Shown one piece after another: positions 7,735 to 24,000 of a DNA stretch of 24,000 nucleotides. Origin of the DNA: Anaerolineaceae bacterium (GTDB taxonomy: Bacteria > Chloroflexota > Anaerolineae > Aggregatilineales > Phototrophicaceae); assembly GCA_037441665.1 (NCBI GenBank), contig JBBIRQ010000001.1, forward strand, positions 358,666-382,665, in the 5' to 3' direction. The stretch's first letter is position 1. Each line of letters starts with the position of its first letter. A program made the position numbers and the translations under genes. The notes beneath the pieces were generated by a model. It made no database searches and was not told the DNA's origin. It saw only the letters and a program-made list of their open reading frames with translations.

Positions 7735-8665
7735 TTTAGATTCCATTTTTAACGAGGATTGGCCACAAGACCATCGTTCAGGTGTTGTAGCCGTGGTCGG
7801 GCGACCGAATGTTGGCAAATCCACCCTCATCAACGCCATCATAGGGCAAAAAATCGCTATCGTCGCCCCCAAACCGCAAACAACCCGACGGCAACAATTA
7901 GGCATCTATACCACCCCGCGCGCGCAAATTTTATTCGTAGATACGCCCGGTATTCACAAAGCGCACCATCGCTTGGGGCAATATATGGTGGATGTCGCCA
8001 CCCGTGCCCTGCAAGATGCCGATATTATCCTATGGATAGTGGATATAACGTTACCTCCGCATCCCGAAGACCGCGCCATCTCTGCGACTATCGGCGACAG
8101 AGCGCCGCAAACGCCCCTTGTGCTCGTCTTCAACAAGATAGACAAAATCAACGCCGAAGCCACCGCGCATGTCGAAGCGTTTAACGCCCTCGTAAAAGCC
8201 CATAGCCAGTACCGCATCAGCGCCTTAAACGGCCTTGGCATTGCGGATTTGCTCGACGCGCTCTTATCGCTACTGCCTACCGGCCCACGTTTTTACCCCG
8301 CGGACCAAACGAGCGAAGTCAACATGCGGTTTATCGCCAGCGAAATCATCCGCGAAAAAGTCATCCTGCATACCGAAAAAGAGGTCCCACATGCGGTCGC
8401 CGTCGAAATAGATAGCTACCAAGAGGAAGAAACGCGCGTTGTCATCAGCGCCATCATTTATGTAGAGCGCGATTCCCAAAAAGGTATCCTCATCGGCAAA
8501 GGTGGGCAAATGATTAAGGCTATCGGTAGCGCGGCACGCCAAGAGCTAATAGAACTGCTAGAGACGCCCGTACACCTCGACTTACGAGTAAAAGTGCTAC
8601 CCAACTGGCGAAGCGACCCCCGCCTACTAAAACGCTTGGGCTATAAAGTCGAAAGCGATGATTAA
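7727..8665 (+). CDS. era: GTPase Era
   Basis: 312 aa with G1 GRPNVGKST, G3 DTPG and G4 NKID, plus a C-terminal KH domain (VERDSQKGILIGKGGQMIK). Confidence 0.95.
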   Translation: MNDLDSIFNEDWPQDHRSGVVAVVGRPNVGKSTLINAIIGQKIAIVAPKPQTTRRQQLGIYTTPRAQILFVDTPGIHKAHHRLGQYMVDVATRALQDADIILWIVDITLPPHPEDRAISATIGDRAPQTPLVLVFNKIDKINAEATAHVEAFNALVKAHSQYRISALNGLGIADLLDALLSLLPTGPRFYPADQTSEVNMRFIASEIIREKVILHTEKEVPHAVAVEIDSYQEEETRVVISAIIYVERDSQKGILIGKGGQMIKAIGSAARQELIELLETPVHLDLRVKVLPNWRSDPRLLKRLGYKVESDD

Positions 8666-9606
8666 TCTACAGAGGTATACAAAGTCATCAAGGTAGCGCG
8701 CGCCGCGGCAATATCGGCGTGAATTTGCGCTTTCAAATCCGCTATCCCTGCGAACTTCTGTTCAGGGCGCAAGCGCGATTCAAAGGTAATGGTTAGCTCT
8801 TTGCCATAAATATCGCGGTCAAAATCGAGCAAGTGCGCCTCTACCGTGATATTTTCGCCCCTAAAAGTAGGACGGACGCCTATATTGGTCACAGCCATAA
8901 AGCGCTCTGCGCCCAATAGCGCCCAACCGGCGTAAACGCCATTAGACGGCAAGACGTAGCCTTCCCAAACGGCGATATTCGCGGTCGGGAAACCTAATTG
9001 CCGTCCGCGTTGGTCGCCTTTAACCACCTTGCCCGATACGGAATAGCTCCGCCCTAACCACTCGCGCACGCCATCTACAGCCCCTTCTTGAATGCGCTCG
9101 CGGATTTTGGAACTGCTGATGACAGCGCCTTCATCTGCATTGAGGATGAGGTCGAGCGTGTGCACCGTGAACCCTTTTTCGCGCCCTTGGGCTTGTAAAA
9201 AGTGAATATCGCCTTCGCGCTTGTAACCCATGGCGAAATCTGCCCCCACCCACAATGCCGACAACTTCAAATAGCGCGATAACTGGTCTACGAAATCGGC
9301 CGCGCGGATATGCCGTACCGATTCATTGAACGGATGGGTCACCACCCAATCAATCCCTAAAGACATCATCAACTCGGCGCGTTGTTGAGGTGTCGTTAAA
9401 TAATATCGCCCCTCTAATCCTTTGAGGACGGCGTCAGGATGTGGAAAGAATGTGAGCGCGACCGCATCGCGATTCGTCGCCCGCGCCTCGGCCACCAAAC
9501 GCTTGAGCAAAGCCTGATGCCCAATATGTAAGCCATCAAAAACCCCTATCGTGACGATAGAAGCTCTGGATACCTGTGCATCCGATAATTGATAAACATG
9601 ACCCAT
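8662..9606 (-). CDS. ribF: Bifunctional riboflavin kinase / FAD synthetase
   Basis: 314 aa with IGVFDGLHIGHQ (FAD synthetase nucleotidyltransferase motif) and LGFPTANI (riboflavin kinase). Confidence 0.95.
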   Translation of the reverse strand: MGHVYQLSDAQVSRASIVTIGVFDGLHIGHQALLKRLVAEARATNRDAVALTFFPHPDAVLKGLEGRYYLTTPQQRAELMMSLGIDWVVTHPFNESVRHIRAADFVDQLSRYLKLSALWVGADFAMGYKREGDIHFLQAQGREKGFTVHTLDLILNADEGAVISSSKIRERIQEGAVDGVREWLGRSYSVSGKVVKGDQRGRQLGFPTANIAVWEGYVLPSNGVYAGWALLGAERFMAVTNIGVRPTFRGENITVEAHLLDFDRDIYGKELTITFESRLRPEQKFAGIADLKAQIHADIAAARATLMTLYTSVD

Positions 9607-14117: not shown

Positions 14118-16043
14118 TTAAAAATCATCCCAGTCAACGCCGCCGCGGCGATTGCCTTTGCGTTGCCGCTTGGCTATCATCTTGCCGGTCTTCTCATCAA
14201 AGACCAGCTGGCGCCCTTTCTTTTGCCCCTTCTTTTTATGTTTCTTAGAACGACTGATGATTTCTTCATCTTCTTCATCGTCGTCATAATCATACTCATC
14301 AAAATCTACGACGGCTTCGCGCTTTTCCGCTTTGGGGCGCGCCTCGGAGGCGGCTACCGTTGGCACGAGCGCTTCGTTACCAAAAGCATCCCATAAGGGT
14401 TCATCTATCGCCTCTTCAAGGCTTGGTTCTGGCGTCATCGCTGGCTCATCCGTCGCCAAAGGCACTTCTTCAGCCTCTGGGGATAGTACGTCTGCTTCTG
14501 GCAGGGCTTCTTCTTCGTCTTCGTCCAGTTCGCCTAGCTCCTCAAAGTCGGGGAATACCGCTTTATCCAAGGCCGTTTGTACTTGCGTTAAAGCATCAGC
14601 CCCTACATCAGCGAGCAAGCGGCGGATACGGTCTTCGTCTATCAGGAAGCGCAACATCACTTCGCCAGCATTACCCAACGGCTTCAACGCTTCGATAATC
14701 TCATCAGAAAGGTCTAAATCTTCCACGGAAATGGTAAAGGCGTTAGCGGGCAAAGTCGCTTTAACCGCGTTGATTTCCTCACGGCGGCGCTGGCGCGAGC
14801 GCTCCCGTTCGGCGAGCAGGCGGCGTTCGACCAAATCCGCAAATTTGCCCAAGAGGTTCAGCTCTTCGGCGGTCACCGCGCGATTTTGGGCGCGCTTTTC
14901 TATCACACGCTCCACATCGGCCACCATATCGGCATATTGTTCGCGTATTTCCGCCAACATCGGCTGATGCAAATTGGATAACGCCCAATTAACCGCTTCT
15001 GGCACGCTCTTGATGTCAATACGCCAGCCCGTCAGCTTGGCGGCGAGGCGCGCATTCTGGCCTTCCCGCCCGATGGCGAGCGATAGTTGGTCATCAGGGA
15101 CGATGACTACTGCCGTCCGTCCGCTATCGGGGTCATCCTCAAGATAGACACCCGTCACGCGCGCCGGCTTTAGCGCTTCTGAGATAAATTGCTCGTGGTT
15201 GGGCTTCCATTCGATAACATCAATTTTTTCGTCGTGCAGTTCCTTGACGATGTTTTGGATACGCACGCCGCGCATGCCTACGCAAGCGCCAACGGGGTCT
15301 ATCCCGTCTTGGAGCGCGGCCACAGCCACTTTAGAGCGGTAACCCGCTTCGCGGGCGATACTTTTAATTTCAATCTGCCCGTTGAAAATTTCGGGCACTT
15401 CGTACTCTAGCAAGCGGCGCAACATATTGCGGTGGCTACGGCTCACGATAATTTGCGGCCCTCTATTGGTGCGCTTCACTTCTAGGCAATAGGTCCGTAG
15501 TTTTTCGTGCGGGCGGTAACGCTCGCCGGGGATTTGCTGATTGCGGGGCATGATAGCTTCTGCGCGCCCCAAACTCAAAGTGACCATAGAAGCGTTAACG
15601 CTCTGGACCGTGCCCGTGATTAAATCGCCCGCGCGGTCGGCGAATTCATCATATAAAGCGTTGCGTTCGGCCTCGCGTATCTTTTGCAAGATAACTTGCT
15701 TAGCGGTTTGTGCGGCAATGCGGCCAAAACGCTTGGTCGAACCTTCTACTTGTACCATCACCATATCGCCCAACTGCGCTTCGGGTTCATAAAAGCGCGC
15801 GGTCTCTAGGGTAACTTCTGTCGAATCGTTGAAAATCGCATCAACGACCTCTTTTTCTACGAAAATGCGCGCCCGACCTGTATTGGGGTCTATGCGCGCC
15901 TCCACACGTTGGGCGGAACTGGCATTCGCGTCGCGCCGATAGGCGGAGACTAATGCAGATTGTAGCGCTTCGATGACGACTTCACGGGGTAAGGCCCGCG
16001 CCTCTGCGATTTCATTAAAAGCGGTTTCTAAATCGTTCGCCAT
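14118..16043 (-). CDS. nusA: Transcription termination/antitermination factor NusA with a long C-terminal extension
   Basis: The first ~345 aa are a canonical NTD-S1-KH1-KH2 ([11 protein letters not shown].., [48 protein letters not shown]). A further ~295 aa follow, described in the findings. Confidence 0.95.
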
Positions 16044-16084: not shown

Positions 16085-16118
16085 ATTAAAACGAAAAGTG
16101 GGGTTGGCCCACTTTTCG
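16085..16118 (-). terminator. Intrinsic terminator in the nusA leader, downstream of the large membrane-protein gene
   Basis: An 11-bp perfect stem pairs 16092-16102 (CGAAAAGTGGG) with 16108-16118 (CCCACTTTTCG) around a 5-nt loop. On the minus strand the stem is followed by TTTTAAT. There is no T-tract on the plus strand. Confidence 0.65.
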
Positions 16119-16141: not shown

Positions 16142-16171
16142 ATTGTAACATGGTGTCTTTCACCATGTCAA
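16142..16171 (-). promoter_or_regulatory. Near-consensus sigma70-type promoter reading into nusA
   Basis: The minus strand reads TTGACA (16171-16166), an 18-nt spacer, then TACAAT (16147-16142). The spacer is almost entirely a perfect inverted repeat, ACATGGTG-N5-CACCATGT (16148-16168). The predicted transcription start near 16135 gives a ~90-nt leader containing the terminator at 16085-16118. Confidence 0.6.
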
Positions 16172-16177
16172 GGCGAA

Positions 16178-19100
16178 CTACTCATCGCCTAAGGGTTCTT
16201 GGGTCGCTTCCTCTGTCTGCGGTATCACCAATTCTATTGTGGCTTCCGCCTCTTCCGGGACGACTTCTAAGGTCGTCTCGGCGGATGGCGCTTCGGGCAT
16301 CGTTTGGGGTTGGGGAAAGGGCTCGAACTTCAAAACACGCCCGATAGATGGGTCAGTGATGTAAACGTAGCCCTCATCATCTACATCAATCCCGCCAACG
16401 AGGCGGAACTGCCCGTTGTTATAAACTTCGCCGGCCAACTGTCCAAAAGAGCCTAGGCATTCGCCATCTGTGTTATAGACCAAAACACGCCCCGCGTCCG
16501 GGTCGGTGACGTAAAGCATCTGCCGCGCTTCGTCCAAAGCCAGATAAGGGCGGTTGCCCTGTTCGGCATACCAGCCCCGCACAGGGAAGGTGACGACAAA
16601 AGCGCCATCACGATTGAAAACAGAGATGCGACGATTCCAATAATCGGCCACGTACACCCGACCATCTGCGCCGACGACTATACTACTCGGCTCGTCAATT
16701 TGCCCGTCGCCACTACCGCCTGTGCCAATATCGCGGACATGCACGGCGATAGGGCCGCTGATGTCATAGACCCGAATGCGTTTATTGCCCGTATCGGCCA
16801 CATAGGCCAAATTTTGCTCATCAATGTCTACGTCACGCGGGCCCCAGAAAGCATCTAAGGGGCTTTGTGGCGCGTTAATGCCGAATTCGCCGGCTTGCCC
16901 CCAACGCTTAATCACTTCTCCGCCTATGGTCAACTGCTGGATGCGATAATTCCATGTATCCACCACAAAGAGGCTACCATCATTGCCCACAGCAACGCTA
17001 TTCGGCCGTGTGAACAAAGCCCCCACAGTTTCATCTCTCCCCTGTTGACCAATGGTAGAGATAAACTGCCCATCTTTAGTGAAGATAGAGATGCGATGGC
17101 TATTTTCCTCAGCGACATACACACGGTCATTATCGGCCACAGCTATACCCAAGGGGCGCACCAATGAAAGCGGGCTTTGCTCAAAGACGCGGGTAGCTTC
17201 TAACAGCATCCAATTGGTATTGCATTGATTCGTCGGCAATTCCGCTAAAACATTGGGCACCGCCCCGCCGCCAACGCCGTAGTTCCAAATCTGGGCGGCA
17301 AAATCTTTACGGATATAGACGTGCATTCTATCCGCCACAGGCCAATTGACCAAGCTAAAATCTTTGTTGATAGCCCGTCCATAGGTCGTATAATCTCTAT
17401 TCCACCAAATATCTAACACCCCTTGGCGAAGCAGAGGCGCGGTTGTATTTTGTGGGGATACATCGAAGAAATTAAGGACGCGGTCGGCCGTGAGATAAAA
17501 ATATTCTTGCATCGGCCACCATAGACGATTGTAATCGTAGCGATAATAACGGTCTTCGAGGAGCGGCTCGACCTTGGCGCGGTTGCCATCACCAATGACG
17601 ACGACCGCCGTATTCTCTAACTGTTGGAGCGTGGGGCTACTGCCTACATAAATCGCATTCGGAAAATCGCGAAAATACCAGCTATAAGGCCATGGCACAA
17701 GGTCATCATAAGCAAAACGAAGTGCCTTGCCATCGGTCATCCGCAAGCTCAAGTCTTCAATATCTTCTAACACGGTCTTGATGGCTGGCGCGGCATGGGC
17801 GTATACCAAAAATTCGGTAGCCAAGTCATAGTTGATAAAAGAGGCCATCCACGCAGAACGGAAGGTCAATACCGCTAGCAGAGCGAACACCCCAACAGCC
17901 AACATGTGGCGGAAGTGCGCCCAACCCGTCACACGGACGAAGCGCCACAAGATAGCCAACACCGTCCCGCTGAGCACGACCACCGCTAACCAGTTGCCCG
18001 TCCGCGCTAGCTGGGCTTGTTCCAAACCTGCAAATGGCGGCCGGCCGACGATGAAAGGCAAAATCACTTGTATAAAACCCGTGACGAATAGAGGGATGAG
18101 GACAACATAAACCCACCCCGCACGGCGAAACTGTCCCCAATCTATCCGTTCGATGATACGACCGAAAAACCAACCCGTGATGAAAATCATCGGCAGGGTC
18201 ATATGCGTGCCTAGCCAAGGCATCTTTTCCCCGGCCAACGTGTATGCCACCAAATTCAAGATGGCCCACCATCCCACGAATAACCAGAAAGGCACTTGCT
18301 CTAATTGAGATAGCTTCGCCAACCGCGCCAGCAAGCCTCTTACACGCTCATTCATCTCTGACGTGCGCTCAATCGTCATGACAGAATCAGCATCCAAAAC
18401 GACGTCATCAGCACTGATGGCCGCCAAACGCTTCTGTTCCAGAACGCCCTGTTCGGATGAAAGGTCTACATCATCCGGTTTAGGTTTTAGATAGCCGCTG
18501 GCATACAGTGTAGATAACTCATCCTGGATGGCGATTTGCTTGCGACGGCGGCGCCAGAATATCGTTACCGCGGCGAACATTCCACTAATACTGCCGAGCA
18601 CAGGCAAAAATTCATAAAAAGGCAAGATGATGAGCAAATAATAATACTGGGGTTGGCTACCGCGACGCACGCCCTGTTGCTCTAGCCAGTAACCAAGGCT
18701 ATAAATCATGCCCGTTGCCAAACCATCTATGTTAGTGAAAACGGTCGTGAAGAAAAAGGCAAAAATCGCATGAAAAATCGCCGAAGCGACGAGCCACTGC
18801 CGCCAATTCCACAATAGCCCCAAACCGATGGCCAAGGTCATCATCGGCACCCACGCCAAAAAGCCCAAGACCACTTGCCCGACTTGTTGGGGAGAATTCA
18901 CATCCGGCCGCGATAAAATGAGGTCGTTCAAAAATTGCGGCAACGACTGCGCGATAGCCGTATAATCCTGTGGCGTCGCCCGCATCAGATAGGGGATTAA
19001 CGCGGTCAACCACGGCAAAATGAGCGTGCCCATCACCATGAGGATGTCGAATTCGGGGAATTGCGCTAAAAATGCTTTCAAACGGATTAGGCGACCGTCA

Positions 19101-20281
19101 TTATTGAGCGCTATAACGCCCGCACCAATAGCAAAAGCCCCCCCCCACACCAACACCATTGGCCACCAACGAATATTGGTGATAAGCCCTTCTACCTGCG
19201 ACCCTTGCCCTTCCTGACCGGGGACGACTGGCACGGCGGGTTGGTCGCTCGTTGGCTGGGTATGCGTGAACTCCTCAAAGATGAGGAGCGAAAAGCCAAT
19301 CGCAAAAGCGATGACCAACAACAAGGTCAAATCGCGCCACCGAATCTGCTCCGGGCGATGCCGAAAGGCCCAAAAAAGCCCTGCGGTAGCAACTGTGACG
19401 ACAAAAGCGATGATTAACAGCGTCCACAGGATAAAACTACTCTGCTCTACGGTCGTGAGTTCGGCAAAAGGCGTTCCACTGCCGGGCACAATCATCACGG
19501 GGATAATATCAATGATGATATACATCCCCAAGGCGCCCACCCCGCCCAATAAAATCCCTATCACGGTGAAATAAAAAAGGGTGCGGCCGGGCAGTTGCCA
19601 AAAATGCTGGGCCATGCGGACCAACCAATACAGCGTGATAAAAGCGCCGAAAATGGCGATATAGATAAATGCGGTCTCTTTGCTACCCAAGTTCAGCACC
19701 ATAGCGGCTGATAATAAATACAACCAGCGCGGTTTATGGCGCACCCCTTCCGGGCCGTTTAGGTACATCAGGATGGCATAGAACATCAAAATTGCGTAGA
19801 CAATCGAGGGGGTATCGTGGCGAATGTAACGATTGTAATACATCAACAGAGGCGAGATGAGGAGCATAACCCCCACTAACAAAGCGCCCCAACGCCCCAA
19901 CCAACGCCGAAATAATAGCGGCGTCATCACCATGAATACACCCAATGCCGCGGCATAAATACGCGCCGTGAAATCGTTAGCGCCAAACAGCGCGTAACTC
20001 AAAGCCGTCATATGAAAGAGAATAGGGCCATGCATCAACGGCGTATGGCGGAACTCCCCTTGCGCGTAGAGCTTATACGAAAAGTGGGTGTGTAGGCTCT
20101 CGTCATGGCTCATCACCCTATCGCCCAAAATGTAAAAGCGGGTGAAAAGGGCCAGCGCAAAAATAACGACCCACGCCACTAGCTCCCAATTGAGCGTGAA
20201 AACGCGGGAAAAGGTCTGATTCAAAACATTATCGGGGGTTTCGCGATGCGTTGTTGTCGCCATAATTCCTCGGTTCATCAA
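16178..20281 (-). CDS. TIGR03663-type (PMT/GT-C-like, Agl23-like) polytopic membrane protein fused to a C-terminal six-bladed NHL beta-propeller
   Basis: 1367 aa. The N-terminal part has VMSHDESLHTHF (D60 E61), LMHGPILFH (H84 G85 P86), many TM helices and GSQPQYYYLLIILPFYEFLP. The C-terminal part has six NHL repeats. The track start is a TTG; an ATG at 20263 (MATTTHRE) preceded by GAGGA is an alternative. Confidence 0.85.
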   Translation of the reverse strand: MMNRGIMATTTHRETPDNVLNQTFSRVFTLNWELVAWVVIFALALFTRFYILGDRVMSHDESLHTHFSYKLYAQGEFRHTPLMHGPILFHMTALSYALFGANDFTARIYAAALGVFMVMTPLLFRRWLGRWGALLVGVMLLISPLLMYYNRYIRHDTPSIVYAILMFYAILMYLNGPEGVRHKPRWLYLLSAAMVLNLGSKETAFIYIAIFGAFITLYWLVRMAQHFWQLPGRTLFYFTVIGILLGGVGALGMYIIIDIIPVMIVPGSGTPFAELTTVEQSSFILWTLLIIAFVVTVATAGLFWAFRHRPEQIRWRDLTLLLVIAFAIGFSLLIFEEFTHTQPTSDQPAVPVVPGQEGQGSQVEGLITNIRWWPMVLVWGGAFAIGAGVIALNNDGRLIRLKAFLAQFPEFDILMVMGTLILPWLTALIPYLMRATPQDYTAIAQSLPQFLNDLILSRPDVNSPQQVGQVVLGFLAWVPMMTLAIGLGLLWNWRQWLVASAIFHAIFAFFFTTVFTNIDGLATGMIYSLGYWLEQQGVRRGSQPQYYYLLIILPFYEFLPVLGSISGMFAAVTIFWRRRRKQIAIQDELSTLYASGYLKPKPDDVDLSSEQGVLEQKRLAAISADDVVLDADSVMTIERTSEMNERVRGLLARLAKLSQLEQVPFWLFVGWWAILNLVAYTLAGEKMPWLGTHMTLPMIFITGWFFGRIIERIDWGQFRRAGWVYVVLIPLFVTGFIQVILPFIVGRPPFAGLEQAQLARTGNWLAVVVLSGTVLAILWRFVRVTGWAHFRHMLAVGVFALLAVLTFRSAWMASFINYDLATEFLVYAHAAPAIKTVLEDIEDLSLRMTDGKALRFAYDDLVPWPYSWYFRDFPNAIYVGSSPTLQQLENTAVVVIGDGNRAKVEPLLEDRYYRYDYNRLWWPMQEYFYLTADRVLNFFDVSPQNTTAPLLRQGVLDIWWNRDYTTYGRAINKDFSLVNWPVADRMHVYIRKDFAAQIWNYGVGGGAVPNVLAELPTNQCNTNWMLLEATRVFEQSPLSLVRPLGIAVADNDRVYVAEENSHRISIFTKDGQFISTIGQQGRDETVGALFTRPNSVAVGNDGSLFVVDTWNYRIQQLTIGGEVIKRWGQAGEFGINAPQSPLDAFWGPRDVDIDEQNLAYVADTGNKRIRVYDISGPIAVHVRDIGTGGSGDGQIDEPSSIVVGADGRVYVADYWNRRISVFNRDGAFVVTFPVRGWYAEQGNRPYLALDEARQMLYVTDPDAGRVLVYNTDGECLGSFGQLAGEVYNNGQFRLVGGIDVDDEGYVYITDPSIGRVLKFEPFPQPQTMPEAPSAETTLEVVPEEAEATIELVIPQTEEATQEPLGDE
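16319..17164 (-). other. Region encoding six tandem NHL repeats (protein-level repeat, beta-propeller)
   Basis: The blades are centred on RVYVAEENSHRISIF, SLFVVDTWNYRIQQL, LAYVADTGNKRIRVY, RVYVADYWNRRISVF, MLYVTDPDAGRVLVY and YVYITDPSIGRVLKF. Each is spaced about 40-45 aa from the next and fits the NHL pattern hydrophobic-V-[AT]-D-x-x-N-x-R-[IV]. Confidence 0.8.
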
Positions 20282-20289
20282 TGCTTACA

Positions 20290-20850
20290 TCATTTGCCGG
20301 CTGGTTCCGGCGTATTTTGCAATAACTGCGGCGCGAACCGTTCCGCGCTCGCTTGGGTACTGCTTAAAGCCACATCAGCTTGTAACGGGGCGATAAAGCG
20401 GTCGGGTGTGCCCGTCAAGAAGAGGCGCTGTCCTAAAACAATCGGCGACGGTTGGGAAGGCACCACAAAAGCGCCGCTACCGGTGCGCCATACTATCGGC
20501 GCGAGTAAAGCCATGAGCAACAACACCATTAGCAACCCGTAACTCACCGATTGCCGCTTCTCGGCCCGACGCACTGCCCCATCGGCGGGCGCTTGAACCA
20601 CCGACCAAATCGAATCAAAAGTCGGCACATGCCGTGCAGAAGGCGCATGCATCAGCGCATTTATATCGCGCGCGAGTTGGCGTTGGCGCTGATATTCAGC
20701 ATAACAAGCTGAGGACGCATCCAAATAACGCGCGATACGCTTGCGCGTCGCGGGGGGTAAATCGCCATGAATATAAGCAGGAAGCCGCGCTTTACAATAT
20801 TGCAACCGCCACCAATCTCGTAGATTATGCCACATATTCACCATCTTCAA
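20290..20850 (-). CDS. Putative anti-sigma factor (single TM, degenerate zf-HC2-like N-terminus)
   Basis: It begins 6 nt downstream of the ECF sigma gene. The N-terminus CKARLPAYIHGDLPPATRKRIARYLDASSACYAEY aligns with the anti-sigma pattern C..L.aYlDGeL......HL..C..C. One TM helix is present (YGLLMVLLLMALLAPIVW), followed by a ~70-aa C-terminal domain. The start is ambiguous (TTG 20850, ATG 20844 or ATG 20835). Confidence 0.6.
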   Translation of the reverse strand: MKMVNMWHNLRDWWRLQYCKARLPAYIHGDLPPATRKRIARYLDASSACYAEYQRQRQLARDINALMHAPSARHVPTFDSIWSVVQAPADGAVRRAEKRQSVSYGLLMVLLLMALLAPIVWRTGSGAFVVPSQPSPIVLGQRLFLTGTPDRFIAPLQADVALSSTQASAERFAPQLLQNTPEPAGK

Positions 20851-20856
20851 ACGAGC

Positions 20857-21444
20857 TCACACCCATAATTCTTCTAATAAACCGCGCCAGATAGGTTGTA
20901 ACACATTCCGCAAGCGCTCATGCGCCAAGCGAACGCGGCTCTCGGCCGTTTTTTGGGGACAACCCATCACTTCGGCAATCTCGCGAAAAGTTAACCCATG
21001 CCCATAACGTAACACTATCGCTTCGCGCAGAGGCGGCGATAAGGTCACTAACGCTTCGCTGATGGCATCTTCGGCGGCGCGCCGCGCCAATTGCCCCTCC
21101 GGCGTCTCGGACGTTGGCCCCCGTTGCAACACTTGAGTGATGTCTACCGTAGGCGGGCGCTGACGGCGATAAACATTGCGGCAACGGCTCACGGCAATAG
21201 TGTATAGCCATGTCTTAAAAGCCGACTTTTGCGCGTCATAGCGCCGCAGATTCTTAAAAGCGTAGACAAATGTCTCTTGTGTGATGTCTTCAGCATCTTG
21301 TTGATTCAACAACAAGCTATAACACAAACGATATACGCCTGCCGCGTAATGGTCATATAATTCTGAGAACGCTTGTTGCTGACCTTCAAGACAACGTTGA
21401 AGCGCCGCTTGAACATCAAATGAAGCATCTGAGCGAGCTGTCAT
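20857..21444 (-). CDS. ECF-type RNA polymerase sigma-70 family factor
   Basis: 195 aa. Region 2 reads FSELYDHYAAGVYRLCYSLLLNQQDAEDITQETFVYAFKNLRRYD..FKTWLYTIAVSRCRN. Region 4 carries the helix-turn-helix LREAIVLRYGHGLTFREIAEVMGCPQKTAESRVRLAHERL. Confidence 0.9.
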   Translation of the reverse strand: MTARSDASFDVQAALQRCLEGQQQAFSELYDHYAAGVYRLCYSLLLNQQDAEDITQETFVYAFKNLRRYDAQKSAFKTWLYTIAVSRCRNVYRRQRPPTVDITQVLQRGPTSETPEGQLARRAAEDAISEALVTLSPPLREAIVLRYGHGLTFREIAEVMGCPQKTAESRVRLAHERLRNVLQPIWRGLLEELWV

Positions 21445-21515
21445 CCGATTTTTGCCCCAGCTATGATTGATTTATCCGTTTATATACACGCTCTGACAAA
21501 GCTTTCCTCAATGGA

Positions 21516-23447
21516 TTACGGCCTTTCGCTAGGCGGGACGCCATTATAAACATCCTGACGAAGCCATAGGATAACGGATTCTTTAGGTTGTTCAAGGTTG
21601 CGAATACGCCTTTGGGTCCACCATGCCAAGCTATTGCTCCATGACAAGGCGCGATTATCCCAAAAACTGCGGATATGAAACGACTGCCCCACATAAGAGC
21701 CGCCTAAGTTAGGCTGGACGAGTTGGTCAGATGTCAAAACGATTTGTTGTCGTTGGGCGGCAATCGGCGTGTTGACAAAACGCGCGTTCGGGAAATCCCG
21801 CAACAGCCACCCCATAACACCTGTAGGCGATAAAACAGCGTCCTGTGCCACAACATAAAGCGTCATCAACGGCACGCCGCGGCTATCGCGCTCGGCGATG
21901 TCGTACAAGGTCTGCCTTAGCAGGTAAGCATCCGGAGAGACAGCGTCAATATGCCACGGCTCAAGCGGGTTGCTGGCATGGGTGACAACAGCATTCCACC
22001 CGCTCCCCACACCCGTGATGAGCATAAAGGCGAACAACCCTAGACCCGCGCCTTGAAGCGGCGTTTTAGACCCATAAAAGCCAGCGACGACGAAAAAGCC
22101 TATCAGCATCAATAAGATGGTGATGACAGCCCAGATAGCCGCATAACGCAACATAACCAATGACGCATCCGTGAGGATGAACCACAAATTGACGTCCACG
22201 GGCAAAGCCAATAAAGCGCGGCCTATCGCTTGGAAATGCACGGATAGCATGCACAACAATATGAAAGCGACCAACGCCGTTACCCACTTGGCACGGGCGA
22301 TAGCGCGCATATATTCCGAATCGCTCATATTGATGAAGTCGTCATCCAACCAAAAGAAGGTCGAAGCGTCGTGAACCCAAAAATCAACGACGGCATAGCT
22401 CGCCCAATAGGTCAGCGGGATGACTAGCCACAAGGCATATTCGGCGCGCCCGCCGACATATACCAATGCCAAGCCCAAAGCCACTATCGCCCACGAGGCG
22501 CAAAAGCGGTCGGCTGAATTCAGCTCGCCGCGCCGCGACCGCAAGACATAACCGCCGATGGCGAACAAAATTAAAAACGGTTCATAAAAACCCAATACCC
22601 AAAGCGGATAAGCGGGCGGCGCGGAGGGGGTCGGATTCAAGAAACCGCCCAAGCTCGTCTCTAATAACTGCCCAACCATACCCAGCCCAGATGGATACAT
22701 CATGAACAAGGTGGCCGCCACAAACACCACGCCGCCGCCCACAGCCGAAGCCGCTAGCCATGGGAAATCCTTAAAAGTCTCCCCAAGCGCGTTGGTCTCC
22801 TCTTGGTCACCACGGGCAATAGCCAACGTTTGCCAGCTCAACGTTATAGCGGCGGAGATAGCGAGTGTCAAAGCCACTAAAGGGCCCGACGGCCCGCTTA
22901 AAAAAACCATCACAGCGAAACTACCAGCCCCCAACAAAGCATCCGCCCGCGCCAAGCGCAAGCGAAAGCGCCACAGACCCCACAAGCCGACCATAGTAAA
23001 AAGCAGTGTCCAAATCGTCGTCGAACTCGTGCGGGACGCCATTAAAACAATGGGGGAAAACGCCAACAACACAACCCACAAAAAGACGCGCGAGGGCCCC
23101 AAATAAGCGCGAAATAGTAAAGGCGTGAGCGCAAAGAATACGCCTCCCAAAGCGGTCAACAAACGCGAAGACGATTCATGAACGCCCAACAGCGTGAAAG
23201 AGACGGCCTGCAAGGCGAACATCAAGGGGCTATCGGGCAATTGCTCCCCTTCCGAGCCATGCAACAGCGGATAAACGCGCATCGCCTGTTCCGCTTCGGG
23301 CTGGCTCATCGGCACGCTATCGAGTTCAGCGAGGCGCAACACCAACGCCAAAAAGATGACGATACCATAAGCAACCCACTCTGCGGATAGTCTCAACGAT
23401 TTTTCTTGTGGGTCGGATAATAGGGTATCGCCCATTGTCGTTTCCAT
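21516..23447 (-). CDS. TIGR03663-like polytopic membrane protein, paralog of the 1367-aa protein with substituted invariant residues
   Basis: It aligns by eye to the large protein at the N-terminus (LGVHESSSRLLTALGGVFFALTPLLFRAYLG versus FGANDFTARIYAAALGVFMVMTPLLFRRWLG). It also aligns in the C-terminal domain (WLLRDFPNARFV versus WYFRDFPNAIYV). The track start at 23513 is a TTG overlapping the upstream gene by 43 nt, so I prefer the ATG at 23447 (METTMGD..). Confidence 0.75.
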   Translation of the reverse strand: METTMGDTLLSDPQEKSLRLSAEWVAYGIVIFLALVLRLAELDSVPMSQPEAEQAMRVYPLLHGSEGEQLPDSPLMFALQAVSFTLLGVHESSSRLLTALGGVFFALTPLLFRAYLGPSRVFLWVVLLAFSPIVLMASRTSSTTIWTLLFTMVGLWGLWRFRLRLARADALLGAGSFAVMVFLSGPSGPLVALTLAISAAITLSWQTLAIARGDQEETNALGETFKDFPWLAASAVGGGVVFVAATLFMMYPSGLGMVGQLLETSLGGFLNPTPSAPPAYPLWVLGFYEPFLILFAIGGYVLRSRRGELNSADRFCASWAIVALGLALVYVGGRAEYALWLVIPLTYWASYAVVDFWVHDASTFFWLDDDFINMSDSEYMRAIARAKWVTALVAFILLCMLSVHFQAIGRALLALPVDVNLWFILTDASLVMLRYAAIWAVITILLMLIGFFVVAGFYGSKTPLQGAGLGLFAFMLITGVGSGWNAVVTHASNPLEPWHIDAVSPDAYLLRQTLYDIAERDSRGVPLMTLYVVAQDAVLSPTGVMGWLLRDFPNARFVNTPIAAQRQQIVLTSDQLVQPNLGGSYVGQSFHIRSFWDNRALSWSNSLAWWTQRRIRNLEQPKESVILWLRQDVYNGVPPSERP

Positions 23448-23470
23448 AATCAACCCTTTCAACGAATCCT

Positions 23471-24000
23471 CTATTGGCTCACCCGATAGATGCGGGAATC
23501 GCCCGATTCGCAAATGACCTCTAGATGTTCTAAGAATTTTTCCTCGCCCGCGCCGCCGTACTGTAAGCGCTCGGTCGTCCCATAGACGATATAATCTATG
23601 CCATAGCGTCGGATGATGTTTTCTGCCACATCCCAGCGTAAATCCGTATAGAGTTCATCCATATCTGCGCGGCGCGTGCCAGCAATCGCATCATACGTCG
23701 CCCCGCGCCATTGGCGCTCGTGATTTTCCCACCCCAAGACGATAGAGATACCTGTTAAAGCGCCCACACGGCCATACCATGCGTTATAGGCATCGCGCAC
23801 TGCTTCGGCAACAACAGCGGAATCTCCCTGCACTATATCGCCCAAGCACATCACGACCGCATAATCATCAGCGGTCACCATCGAACGCCCGCCATCGAGC
23901 GTCCAAGCGGGCTGTAGATACAACTGTCCATCACGGATACGAACGACGCCCTCTTCATTAGCGGTCAATGTGCGCCCGCCAGCAATCCCTTCGCCGATGA
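23471..24000 (-). CDS. C-terminal part of a DUF2298 / 'Chlor_Arch_YYY' (TIGR03662-like) membrane protein (5' end beyond the window)
   Basis: The frame is open upstream of the track's TTG at 23968 through nt 24000 (..IGEGIAGGRTLTANEEG..). The C-terminal pattern ..GRVGALTGISIVLGWENHERQWRG..RRADMDELYT..RRYGIDYIVYGTTERLQYG..EEKF matches my recollection of the conserved DUF2298 C-terminus (TG.P.vlGW..HE.QWRG .. Y.v.Yi.vG..Er..Y). This has not been checked against an HMM. Confidence 0.6.
   Translation of the reverse strand, partial: IGEGIAGGRTLTANEEGVVRIRDGQLYLQPAWTLDGGRSMVTADDYAVVMCLGDIVQGDSAVVAEAVRDAYNAWYGRVGALTGISIVLGWENHERQWRGATYDAIAGTRRADMDELYTDLRWDVAENIIRRYGIDYIVYGTTERLQYGGAGEEKFLEHLEVICESGDSRIYRVSQ

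Follow-up and report, generated by a model that had tools for sequence, protein, structure and literature searches.

The stretch of DNA considered here, 24,000 nt of contig JBBIRQ010000001.1 from an Anaerolineaceae bacterium and referred to below as the window, carries on its minus strand a gene pair for an extracytoplasmic function (ECF) sigma factor and a putative membrane-anchored anti-sigma factor, set within a row of genes for large membrane proteins of the TIGR03662 and TIGR03663 families. This pair probably constitutes a dedicated, positively autoregulated switch for the surrounding cluster, whose products are predicted to assemble glycans with enzymes of the GT-C glycosyltransferase fold. 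Two observations carry the proposal, namely the conserved position of the pair among related genomes and a two-box motif of ECF promoter type, which occurs ahead of the sigma gene and again ahead of a large gene further upstream in the same cluster. An earlier, sequence-only reading of the window had deduced the coupling of the pair to its neighbors from gene spacing; because the motif marks two sites of the cluster, both of them predicted promoters, the connection no longer depends on spacing alone.

All five co-directional minus-strand genes described in the sequence-only reading are present where it placed them, and the gaps of 71, 6, and 8 nt between their open reading frames (ORFs) are correct. 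With the start codons used in the databases, the sigma and anti-sigma genes are separated by 12 nt, and the anti-sigma gene is separated by 26 nt from the gene for a TIGR03663 protein with a C-terminal NHL propeller (GT-C+NHL protein). The ORF of the latter (16178–20281) encodes 1367 aa from a TTG, while the database copy starts at ATG 20263, which is preceded by a GAGGA ribosome-binding site, and has 1361 aa. The features of the cluster in the window, with the evidence for each, are as follows:

23471–24000, minus strand: C-terminus of a DUF2298 protein, 175 codons of an 885-aa TIGR03662 ("YYY") membrane protein, running off the window edge (ORF, profile hidden Markov model (HMM)).
21516–23447, minus strand: apparently degenerate TIGR03663-like paralog, 643 aa from ATG 23447, within a 665-aa ORF spanning 21516–23513.
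21481–21510, minus strand: candidate ECF-type autoregulatory promoter TGAGGAAAGCTTTGTCAGAGCGTGTATATA, predicted from a conserved two-box motif.
20857–21444, minus strand: ECF (group IV) sigma-70 factor, 195 aa (TIGR02937, Sigma70_r2, r4_2).
20290–20844, minus strand: putative single-pass class I anti-sigma factor, derived from the zinc-associated anti-sigma (ZAS) type, 184 aa (ortholog profile); the ORF 20290–20850 has 186 aa.
16178–20263, minus strand: GT-C+NHL protein, 1361 aa, TIGR03663 (Agl23) family (TIGR03663 and NHL HMMs).

The cluster reaches further than the sequence-only reading had described. The genes it named are present, and two more lie beyond the window edge, which were found upstream via homologs of the paralog and encode a PMT_2-like protein of ~850–925 aa and a DUF2298 protein of 1750–1960 aa. 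The region would represent the downstream part of an envelope module of ~25 kb, the core of which may be an old five-gene row of membrane proteins with predicted GT-C folds, in the order PMT_2-like protein, 1750–1960-aa DUF2298 protein, 885-aa DUF2298 protein, degenerate TIGR03663 paralog, and TIGR03663 protein with an outer NHL propeller.

A search with a large-protein alignment, counting one genome per species, revealed at least 574 genomes with relatives. The loci of the best 80 were retrieved, and the window proteins were searched against their six-frame ORFs (relatives' stretches compared with the window are labeled L###; ~24 kb per genome was scanned). These best 80 all belong to the Anaerolineae, are mostly labeled Aggregatilineales or Phototrophicaceae, and show 43–55% identity in the GT protein. 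The order large DUF2298, DUF2298, paralog, sigma, anti-sigma, GT-C+NHL is found in ~76 of the 80 and is seen in essentially every locus of sufficient length, with nusA usually next after the GT-C+NHL gene; L055 (without the sigma pair), L057, and L004 are exceptions. The insertion of the pair, with its position kept in ~76 of 80 species-level relatives, is therefore not peculiar to the window genome. The spacing is equally tight, with a median of 11 nt (maximum 214 nt) between the sigma and anti-sigma genes and of 38 nt (maximum 76 nt) between the anti-sigma and GT-C+NHL genes. In L055 (9929–15630, labeled Phototrophicaceae), the GT-C+NHL gene directly follows the paralog, and this locus reflects either a secondary loss or membership in a sigma-less clade.

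Distant metagenome loci, whose large DUF2298 protein is 30–36% identical, keep the PMT_2-like, large DUF2298, DUF2298, and paralog genes. In L110, L130, L138, and L150 the GT gene directly follows the paralog with no sigma gene between them, and no motif with a score of at least 15 was found in these four loci. Another locus, L117, carries a homologous ECF sigma factor and a ZAS anti-sigma factor with a Pro/Thr-rich tail between its two DUF2298 genes (7935–9151), and a related −10 box lies upstream of this sigma gene. Given the sigma-less distant relatives and the different position in L117, the pair was apparently added to an older five-gene cluster, and at two positions. On this comparison, the sigma pair of the window is an insertion specific to its clade, made into a cluster that is older and had no sigma gene; in the Aggregatilineales/Phototrophicaceae clade, the sigma and ZAS-type anti-sigma genes would have entered between the fourth and fifth genes.

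The regulatory proposal turns on the gap between the paralog and the sigma gene, which holds a two-box motif of the form T(G/A)AGGA(A/T)-N14-GTGTA(T)A that often overlaps the paralog stop codon. In the window, a −35-like TGAGGAA and a −10-like GTGTATA are separated by a 14-nt spacer; this element begins 5 nt past the paralog stop codon, ends ~36 nt before the sigma ATG, and is the sole match in the window (0.06 expected). Among the relatives, the strict motif lies at most 130 nt upstream of the sigma gene in 63 of 74 loci. Elsewhere, only 4 matches occur in 1.62 Mb, with ~2.3 expected from shuffled sequences. The spacer varies in sequence across the genome loci, its length is always 14 nt, and all sigma-upstream copies lie on the coding strand. 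A 15-nt spacer separates the boxes of the sigma-upstream copy in three metagenome loci (L087, L089, and L107). Placed in a TGAGGA-N16-TGTATA frame, the motif parallels the Bacillus subtilis ECF consensus, which has tgaAAC at −35 and CGTA or CGTC at −10 (PMC5758882).

A second high-scoring copy was identified in L083 and L085; it coincides with the PMT_2-like stop codon and precedes the large DUF2298 gene by ~65 nt. Metagenome loci retrieved with the large DUF2298 protein as query added L087, L089, L107, L127, and L112, and the second copy was present in every sigma-bearing locus reaching that gene, at 50–110 nt upstream of it in L083, L085, L087, L089, L107, and L127 and as a variant in L112. 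By chance, the strict motif would be expected within a 150-nt stretch at ~2e-4 per locus, a value derived from its background rate. In L038 (3787) and L045 (3713), an extra motif-like site, TGAGGAAGGACTGCTG(A/G)AGGTGGTGTA, precedes the smaller DUF2298 gene by ~100 nt and could be a third promoter. Other candidates were dismissed. A position weight matrix match within the GT-C+NHL coding region (17109, 10.9 bits) is weak and was attributed to chance. A match of the form AGGAT-N16-(C/T/G)GTGTA, located ~13.5 kb downstream of the sigma gene (at ~22100–22320 in L008, L009, L013, L024, L061, and L064, and at 14416 in L043), differs in spacing and is itself conserved in sequence, and is probably conserved coding sequence.

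It is very improbable that the motif is instead bound by another regulator or arises from stop-codon or intergenic context, which would leave the sigma factor and the glycosyltransferases as uncoupled neighbors. Such an origin would fit the resemblance of TGAGGAA to a Shine-Dalgarno sequence, its frequent overlap with the upstream stop codon, and the status of the promoters as predictions, but it accounts poorly for two boxes joined by a spacer of variable sequence and near-fixed length (14 nt, or 15 nt in the three metagenome loci), and for a strand-specific element found at two distinct junctions between genes and restricted to sigma-carrying genomes. The explanation of the motif as a Shine-Dalgarno sequence followed by a GTG start was rejected, since it lies 35–91 nt from the sigma start, beyond ribosome-binding-site range, and reading frames opening at the GTG stop within a few codons.

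The same data bear on the alternative that the pair serves general envelope stress and governs a broad ECF regulon, in which the GT-C cluster would be one target among others or a mere landing place of the autoregulated sigma operon. The closest characterized relatives of the sigma factor are indeed general envelope-stress factors such as SigW, RpoE, and SigE, the scan spanned only the stretches defined above, and the downstream neighbor differs in L082 and some other loci, so that the region does rearrange. Nevertheless, both detected promoter copies lie inside the cluster, and the 1.6 Mb of flanking DNA holds no further strong copy. Loci without the upstream motif also lack the pair, and the independent insertion in L117 again falls within the same cluster, which makes a broad regulon unlikely.

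The assignment of the sigma factor is clear. It scores 111.9 bits on TIGR02937 (cut-off 42.9) and matches Sigma70_r2 and r4_2, and together with its length of 195 aa this identifies it as an ECF factor. The protein passes no NCBIfam equivalog cut-off; among proteins of solved structure, its nearest homologs are ECF factors such as SigH, SigW, and RpoE, and its orthologs are very highly conserved.

The anti-sigma factor of the window gives weak matches only on anti-sigma models, and its classification comes from the family. The consensus N-terminus of 77 aligned orthologs, CxxC...RRRVARHLDxCxxCY, is a ZAS motif, and most orthologs keep HxxxCxxC together with the upstream CxxC. PF13490 (zf-HC2) is present in several database orthologs, for which one source uses the name RsiW. 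A search with the family profile recovered the anti-sigma domains of ChrR (E 2.6e-4) and DdvA (E 7e-4) and, at lower significance, that of RslA (E 0.014). At the corresponding position the window protein reads Y-LDA-S-SA-C, with Y..S..C for H..C..C, and does not conform to HxxxCxxC; since these ligands are lost, it is a ZAS-derived protein that probably binds no zinc. All 77 orthologs contain one hydrophobic 19-mer (Kyte-Doolittle 1.5–2.9) near residues 90–113. In the window protein, a cytoplasmic domain is followed by a membrane helix (~20491–20547) and a 66-aa Pro/Thr/Ala-rich outer tail (20293–20490) ending in LLQNTPEPAGK. The ortholog tails comprise 46–86 aa (median 58), of which 49% are Pro, Ala, Thr, or Ser, and share a PxxPxP that follows the helix, a TP in the middle, and a conserved LQNTPxP, ATDTP, or ISTP at the C-terminal end.

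The proposed target genes encode proteins of two families. The GT-C+NHL protein, which the sequence-only reading had placed in TIGR03663, reaches 229.3 bits on this model (curated cut-off 126.25), and >1900 homologs of 1300–1400 aa were found for it. It also exceeds the PMT_2 cut-off with 37.1 bits; on PF02366 (PMT) it scores 18.8 bits, under the cut-off of 22.7, and has no MIR match, so that it is not assigned to the GT39 O-mannosyltransferases. In addition to an alpha/beta domain, it has a C-terminal six-bladed NHL beta-propeller (~16331–17194), with four stretches matching PF01436 at 96 bits. A profile of residues 1024–1311 matches the solved propellers of Thin, TRIM71, TRIM2, and PknD (1rwi, the PknD sensor propeller, E 2.7e-16). 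Near the N-terminus, SHDESLH and LMHGP are invariant among 38 homologs of the 1361-aa protein, with the DE located at ~20099–20104; a DE dipeptide and an HGP tripeptide in this region are described as invariant for the TIGR03663 family. A structural model of residues 1–1010 (pLDDT 79.5, pTM 0.84) is most similar to ArnT, Pmt4, and AglB, and the top Foldseek matches for this model and that of the paralog are ArnT, STT3/PglB/AglB, ALG12, and Pmt4, the modeled structure confirming a GT-C fold for the GT-C+NHL protein.

The 643-aa paralog scores 57.9 bits on TIGR03663 (cut-off 126) and has no Pfam match. An hhalign comparison with the GT-C+NHL family nevertheless gives 98.8% probability over 160 N-terminal columns, and its AlphaFold model (pLDDT 67) is best matched by ArnT (5f15, E 5e-9), with STT3 and PglB also among the best matches. 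Conservation over 71 orthologs shows QPEA in place of HDES, replacing DE by P-E, and the loss of HGP. The protein thus appears to be a true but degenerate TIGR03663 paralog with a predicted GT-C fold, and its altered signature points to catalytic degeneration. In the sequence-only reading it was called TIGR03663-like, which holds as a statement of kinship and fails as a model assignment, the score being under the cut-off and both DE and HGP being gone; HMM searches upheld the family assignments of the other three of the four membrane and regulatory proteins.

One of these is the DUF2298 gene at the window edge. Its fragment obtains only 88 bits on TIGR03662 (positions 587–726, the last 140) because it is truncated, whereas the full 885-aa protein, found on a contig (L081) identical to the window, reaches 405.7 bits against a cut-off of 300.25 and carries the YYYLG motif, in agreement with the original TIGR03662/DUF2298 label. 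The large DUF2298 protein upstream scores 438.9 bits on TIGR03662 and carries INYYYFGY. No relation between DUF2298 and TIGR03663 was detected by hhalign, and no solved structure matches DUF2298 by sequence. In L085 (1429–7320) and L083 (2253–7496), the large protein has an N-terminal extension of ~1000 aa, which scores on PMT_2 in part of the genomes, such as L083, but not in the rest, such as L085, and includes a conserved, soluble-looking segment, NRFYD...RWPM...FEADEAFHVYDHP.

As regards chemistry, the modeled fold and the DE loop of the GT-C+NHL protein argue for transfer from polyprenyl-phosphate sugars. Alternatively, the cluster could act as a flippase or scramblase for lipid-linked sugars in the manner of the archaeal Agl23, so that the sigma factor would tune lipid-carrier traffic rather than glycan assembly. 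The 1361-aa protein does pass TIGR03663, the model named for Agl23, and purified Agl23 translocated a lipid-linked oligosaccharide in liposomes (Lu 2020, cited in PMC11182771). This alternative is rather unlikely, since the fold and the invariant acidic motif of the first loop are those of GT-C transferases (ArnT, PMT, AglB), and the large outer alpha/beta and NHL domains suggest acceptor binding. It would alter the chemistry of the cluster and leaves the regulatory conclusion intact.

Under the proposed mechanism of a dedicated switch, the cytoplasmic domain of the anti-sigma factor would bind the sigma factor and hold it inactive. A cue in the envelope would act on the Pro/Thr/Ala-rich outer tail and inactivate the anti-sigma factor, most likely by regulated proteolysis, and the freed sigma factor would direct RNA polymerase to start transcription at the two copies of one promoter. 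The copy before the sigma gene would drive joint transcription of the sigma, anti-sigma, and GT-C+NHL genes, resulting in positive autoregulation, whereas transcription from the copy before the large DUF2298 gene would cover the two DUF2298 genes and the paralog and might continue into the sigma gene. The output of a polyprenyl-phosphate-sugar machinery that assembles or glycosylates material outside the membrane would then track the state of the envelope. A further idea, quite doubtful at present, is that the GT-C+NHL protein may use the anti-sigma tail as an acceptor or bind it as a ligand, the glycosylation or binding state of the tail gating the destruction of the anti-sigma factor. It was suggested by the conserved TP dipeptides and the C-terminal LQNTPxP or ATDTP end; if true, the tail would be a substrate-mimic feedback sensor that reports the supply of lipid-linked glycan or the capacity of the pathway.

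Several points weigh against the switch. The strict motif is missing from 11 of the 74 loci, and the second copy lies outside the window and was read in a relative, L085, whose paralog is 96% identical, not on the window's own contig. The motif is a predicted promoter, and with ~24 kb covered per genome the regulon may be larger than the cluster. The anti-sigma factor of the window is without zinc ligands and scores weakly on anti-sigma models. Finally, Agl23, the only experimental case in its family, behaves as a lipid-linked-sugar flippase and not as a transferase (PMC11182771).

Downstream of the cluster, two hairpins follow the GT-C+NHL stop codon, where the sequence-only reading had placed a terminator. 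The stronger one is the following feature:

16092–16118, minus strand: terminator-like hairpin assigned to the nusA leader (folding energy, conservation near nusA).

This hairpin, CGAAAAGTGGG-CCAAC-CCCACTTTTCG followed by TTTT, has a folding energy of −15.5 kcal/mol, and its T-run extends to 16084. In 60 of 61 loci among L001–L080, the hairpin sequence precedes nusA by 47–192 nt, and it stays near nusA even where the gap to the GT-C+NHL gene measures 600–950 nt. The conserved form is (G)AAAAGTGGG-loop-CCCACTTTT(C/T)G followed by TTTTAT, with a stem that is invariant across loci. Just upstream of it, at 16142–16171 on the minus strand, lies a strong sigma-70-like promoter, TTGACA-18-TACAAT with an upstream TG (11 of 12 matches), which overlaps the weak hairpin directly after the GT-C+NHL stop codon; other loci show cTTGAC/cTTGTCA ... 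TAnAAT boxes ahead of the hairpin. Being tied to the position of nusA and located behind a sigma-70-like promoter, the hairpin is best understood as an element of the nusA leader, and it may be a leader terminator autoregulated by NusA. A hairpin with a T-run is therefore present as claimed, although the strongest one belongs mainly to nusA; it would also stop read-through from the cluster. An Rfam scan of the window returned no match. NusA itself (14118–16043, minus strand) is unusually long with 641 aa and has a C-terminal extension consisting of a highly acidic stretch and a lysine/arginine-rich end. In L082 (11850–16368), the closest long-contig relative with 79% GT identity, genes for HIT, thiolase, and dehydrogenase proteins follow the cluster instead of nusA. 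Because of these other downstream neighbors, the adjacency of nusA is regarded as common but outside the module.

Among known systems, the closest parallel is SigW-RsiW of B. subtilis (also SigM, SigX, and SigV), where an ECF sigma factor is co-transcribed with a single-pass ZAS anti-sigma factor and autoregulated from a two-box ECF promoter. Both traits are predicted here, the motif geometry is parallel, and SigW is among the best sequence matches of the window sigma factor. The systems differ in that the outer part of the anti-sigma factor here is only a 46–86-aa Pro/Thr/Ala-rich tail, and in that the predicted targets are the GT-C/DUF2298 cluster rather than detoxification or cell-wall genes. 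With Haloarcula hispanica Agl23, the 1361-aa protein shares its place in TIGR03663, the DE and HGP elements, and the adjacency to TIGR03662 genes, which agrees with the descriptions of these families; in contrast, its host is a bacterium, the protein is about twice as long with alpha/beta and NHL domains, and it is accompanied by four GT-C-like neighbors and a probable ECF switch.

The best structural match of both TIGR03663-type proteins is the lipid A aminoarabinose transferase ArnT (GT83), a GT-C enzyme whose donor is an undecaprenyl-phosphate sugar and whose expression is induced by the envelope signal system PmrAB. The sequence identity is 12–16%, the regulator of ArnT is a two-component system as opposed to an ECF factor, and this monoderm-type lineage presumably has no lipid A. 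The Emb/Aft arabinosyltransferases of mycobacteria are weaker structural matches and offer an analogy for multi-enzyme glycan assembly, as the genes for several very large GT-C enzymes that bear outer domains at the C-terminus are grouped. Apart from the fold, no sequence relationship exists; an NHL propeller takes the place of their carbohydrate-binding module as the outer domain here, and their clusters contain no embedded ECF pair. The PknD sensor of Mycobacterium tuberculosis is likewise a six-bladed NHL propeller that a membrane protein carries on its extracytoplasmic side, there attached to a kinase and here to a predicted GT-C enzyme. PknD signals to a sigma-factor partner-switching protein; a comparable link between the NHL propeller and the anti-sigma factor of the cluster is speculative. 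ECF pairs controlling envelope genes are well known, whereas literature searches for TIGR03663, DUF2298, and anti-sigma factors together with O-mannosyltransferase found no earlier description of an ECF pair embedded within a TIGR03662/TIGR03663 cluster. The main text of the ECF classification mentions neither Chloroflexi nor PMT or NHL (Casas-Pastor 2021).

Proteins of the TIGR03662 and TIGR03663 families are widespread in Chloroflexota and Archaea, and we know of no function or phenotype for the bacterial members. A dedicated switch with a defined promoter would therefore provide an experimental route to the function of the cluster: if the proposal is correct, loss of the anti-sigma factor or an excess of the sigma factor should turn on the whole cluster, and the condition that induces it should indicate which envelope process its enzymes serve. 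The locus would also be a clean example of an ECF pair that was inserted into a pre-existing operon and gained two predicted promoters there, and the pairing of sigma factor and promoter could be used as an orthogonal part for gene expression in a phylum that is hard to manipulate. The interest of the finding is thus mostly practical, in that it would offer a way into the function of a large uncharacterized enzyme cluster.

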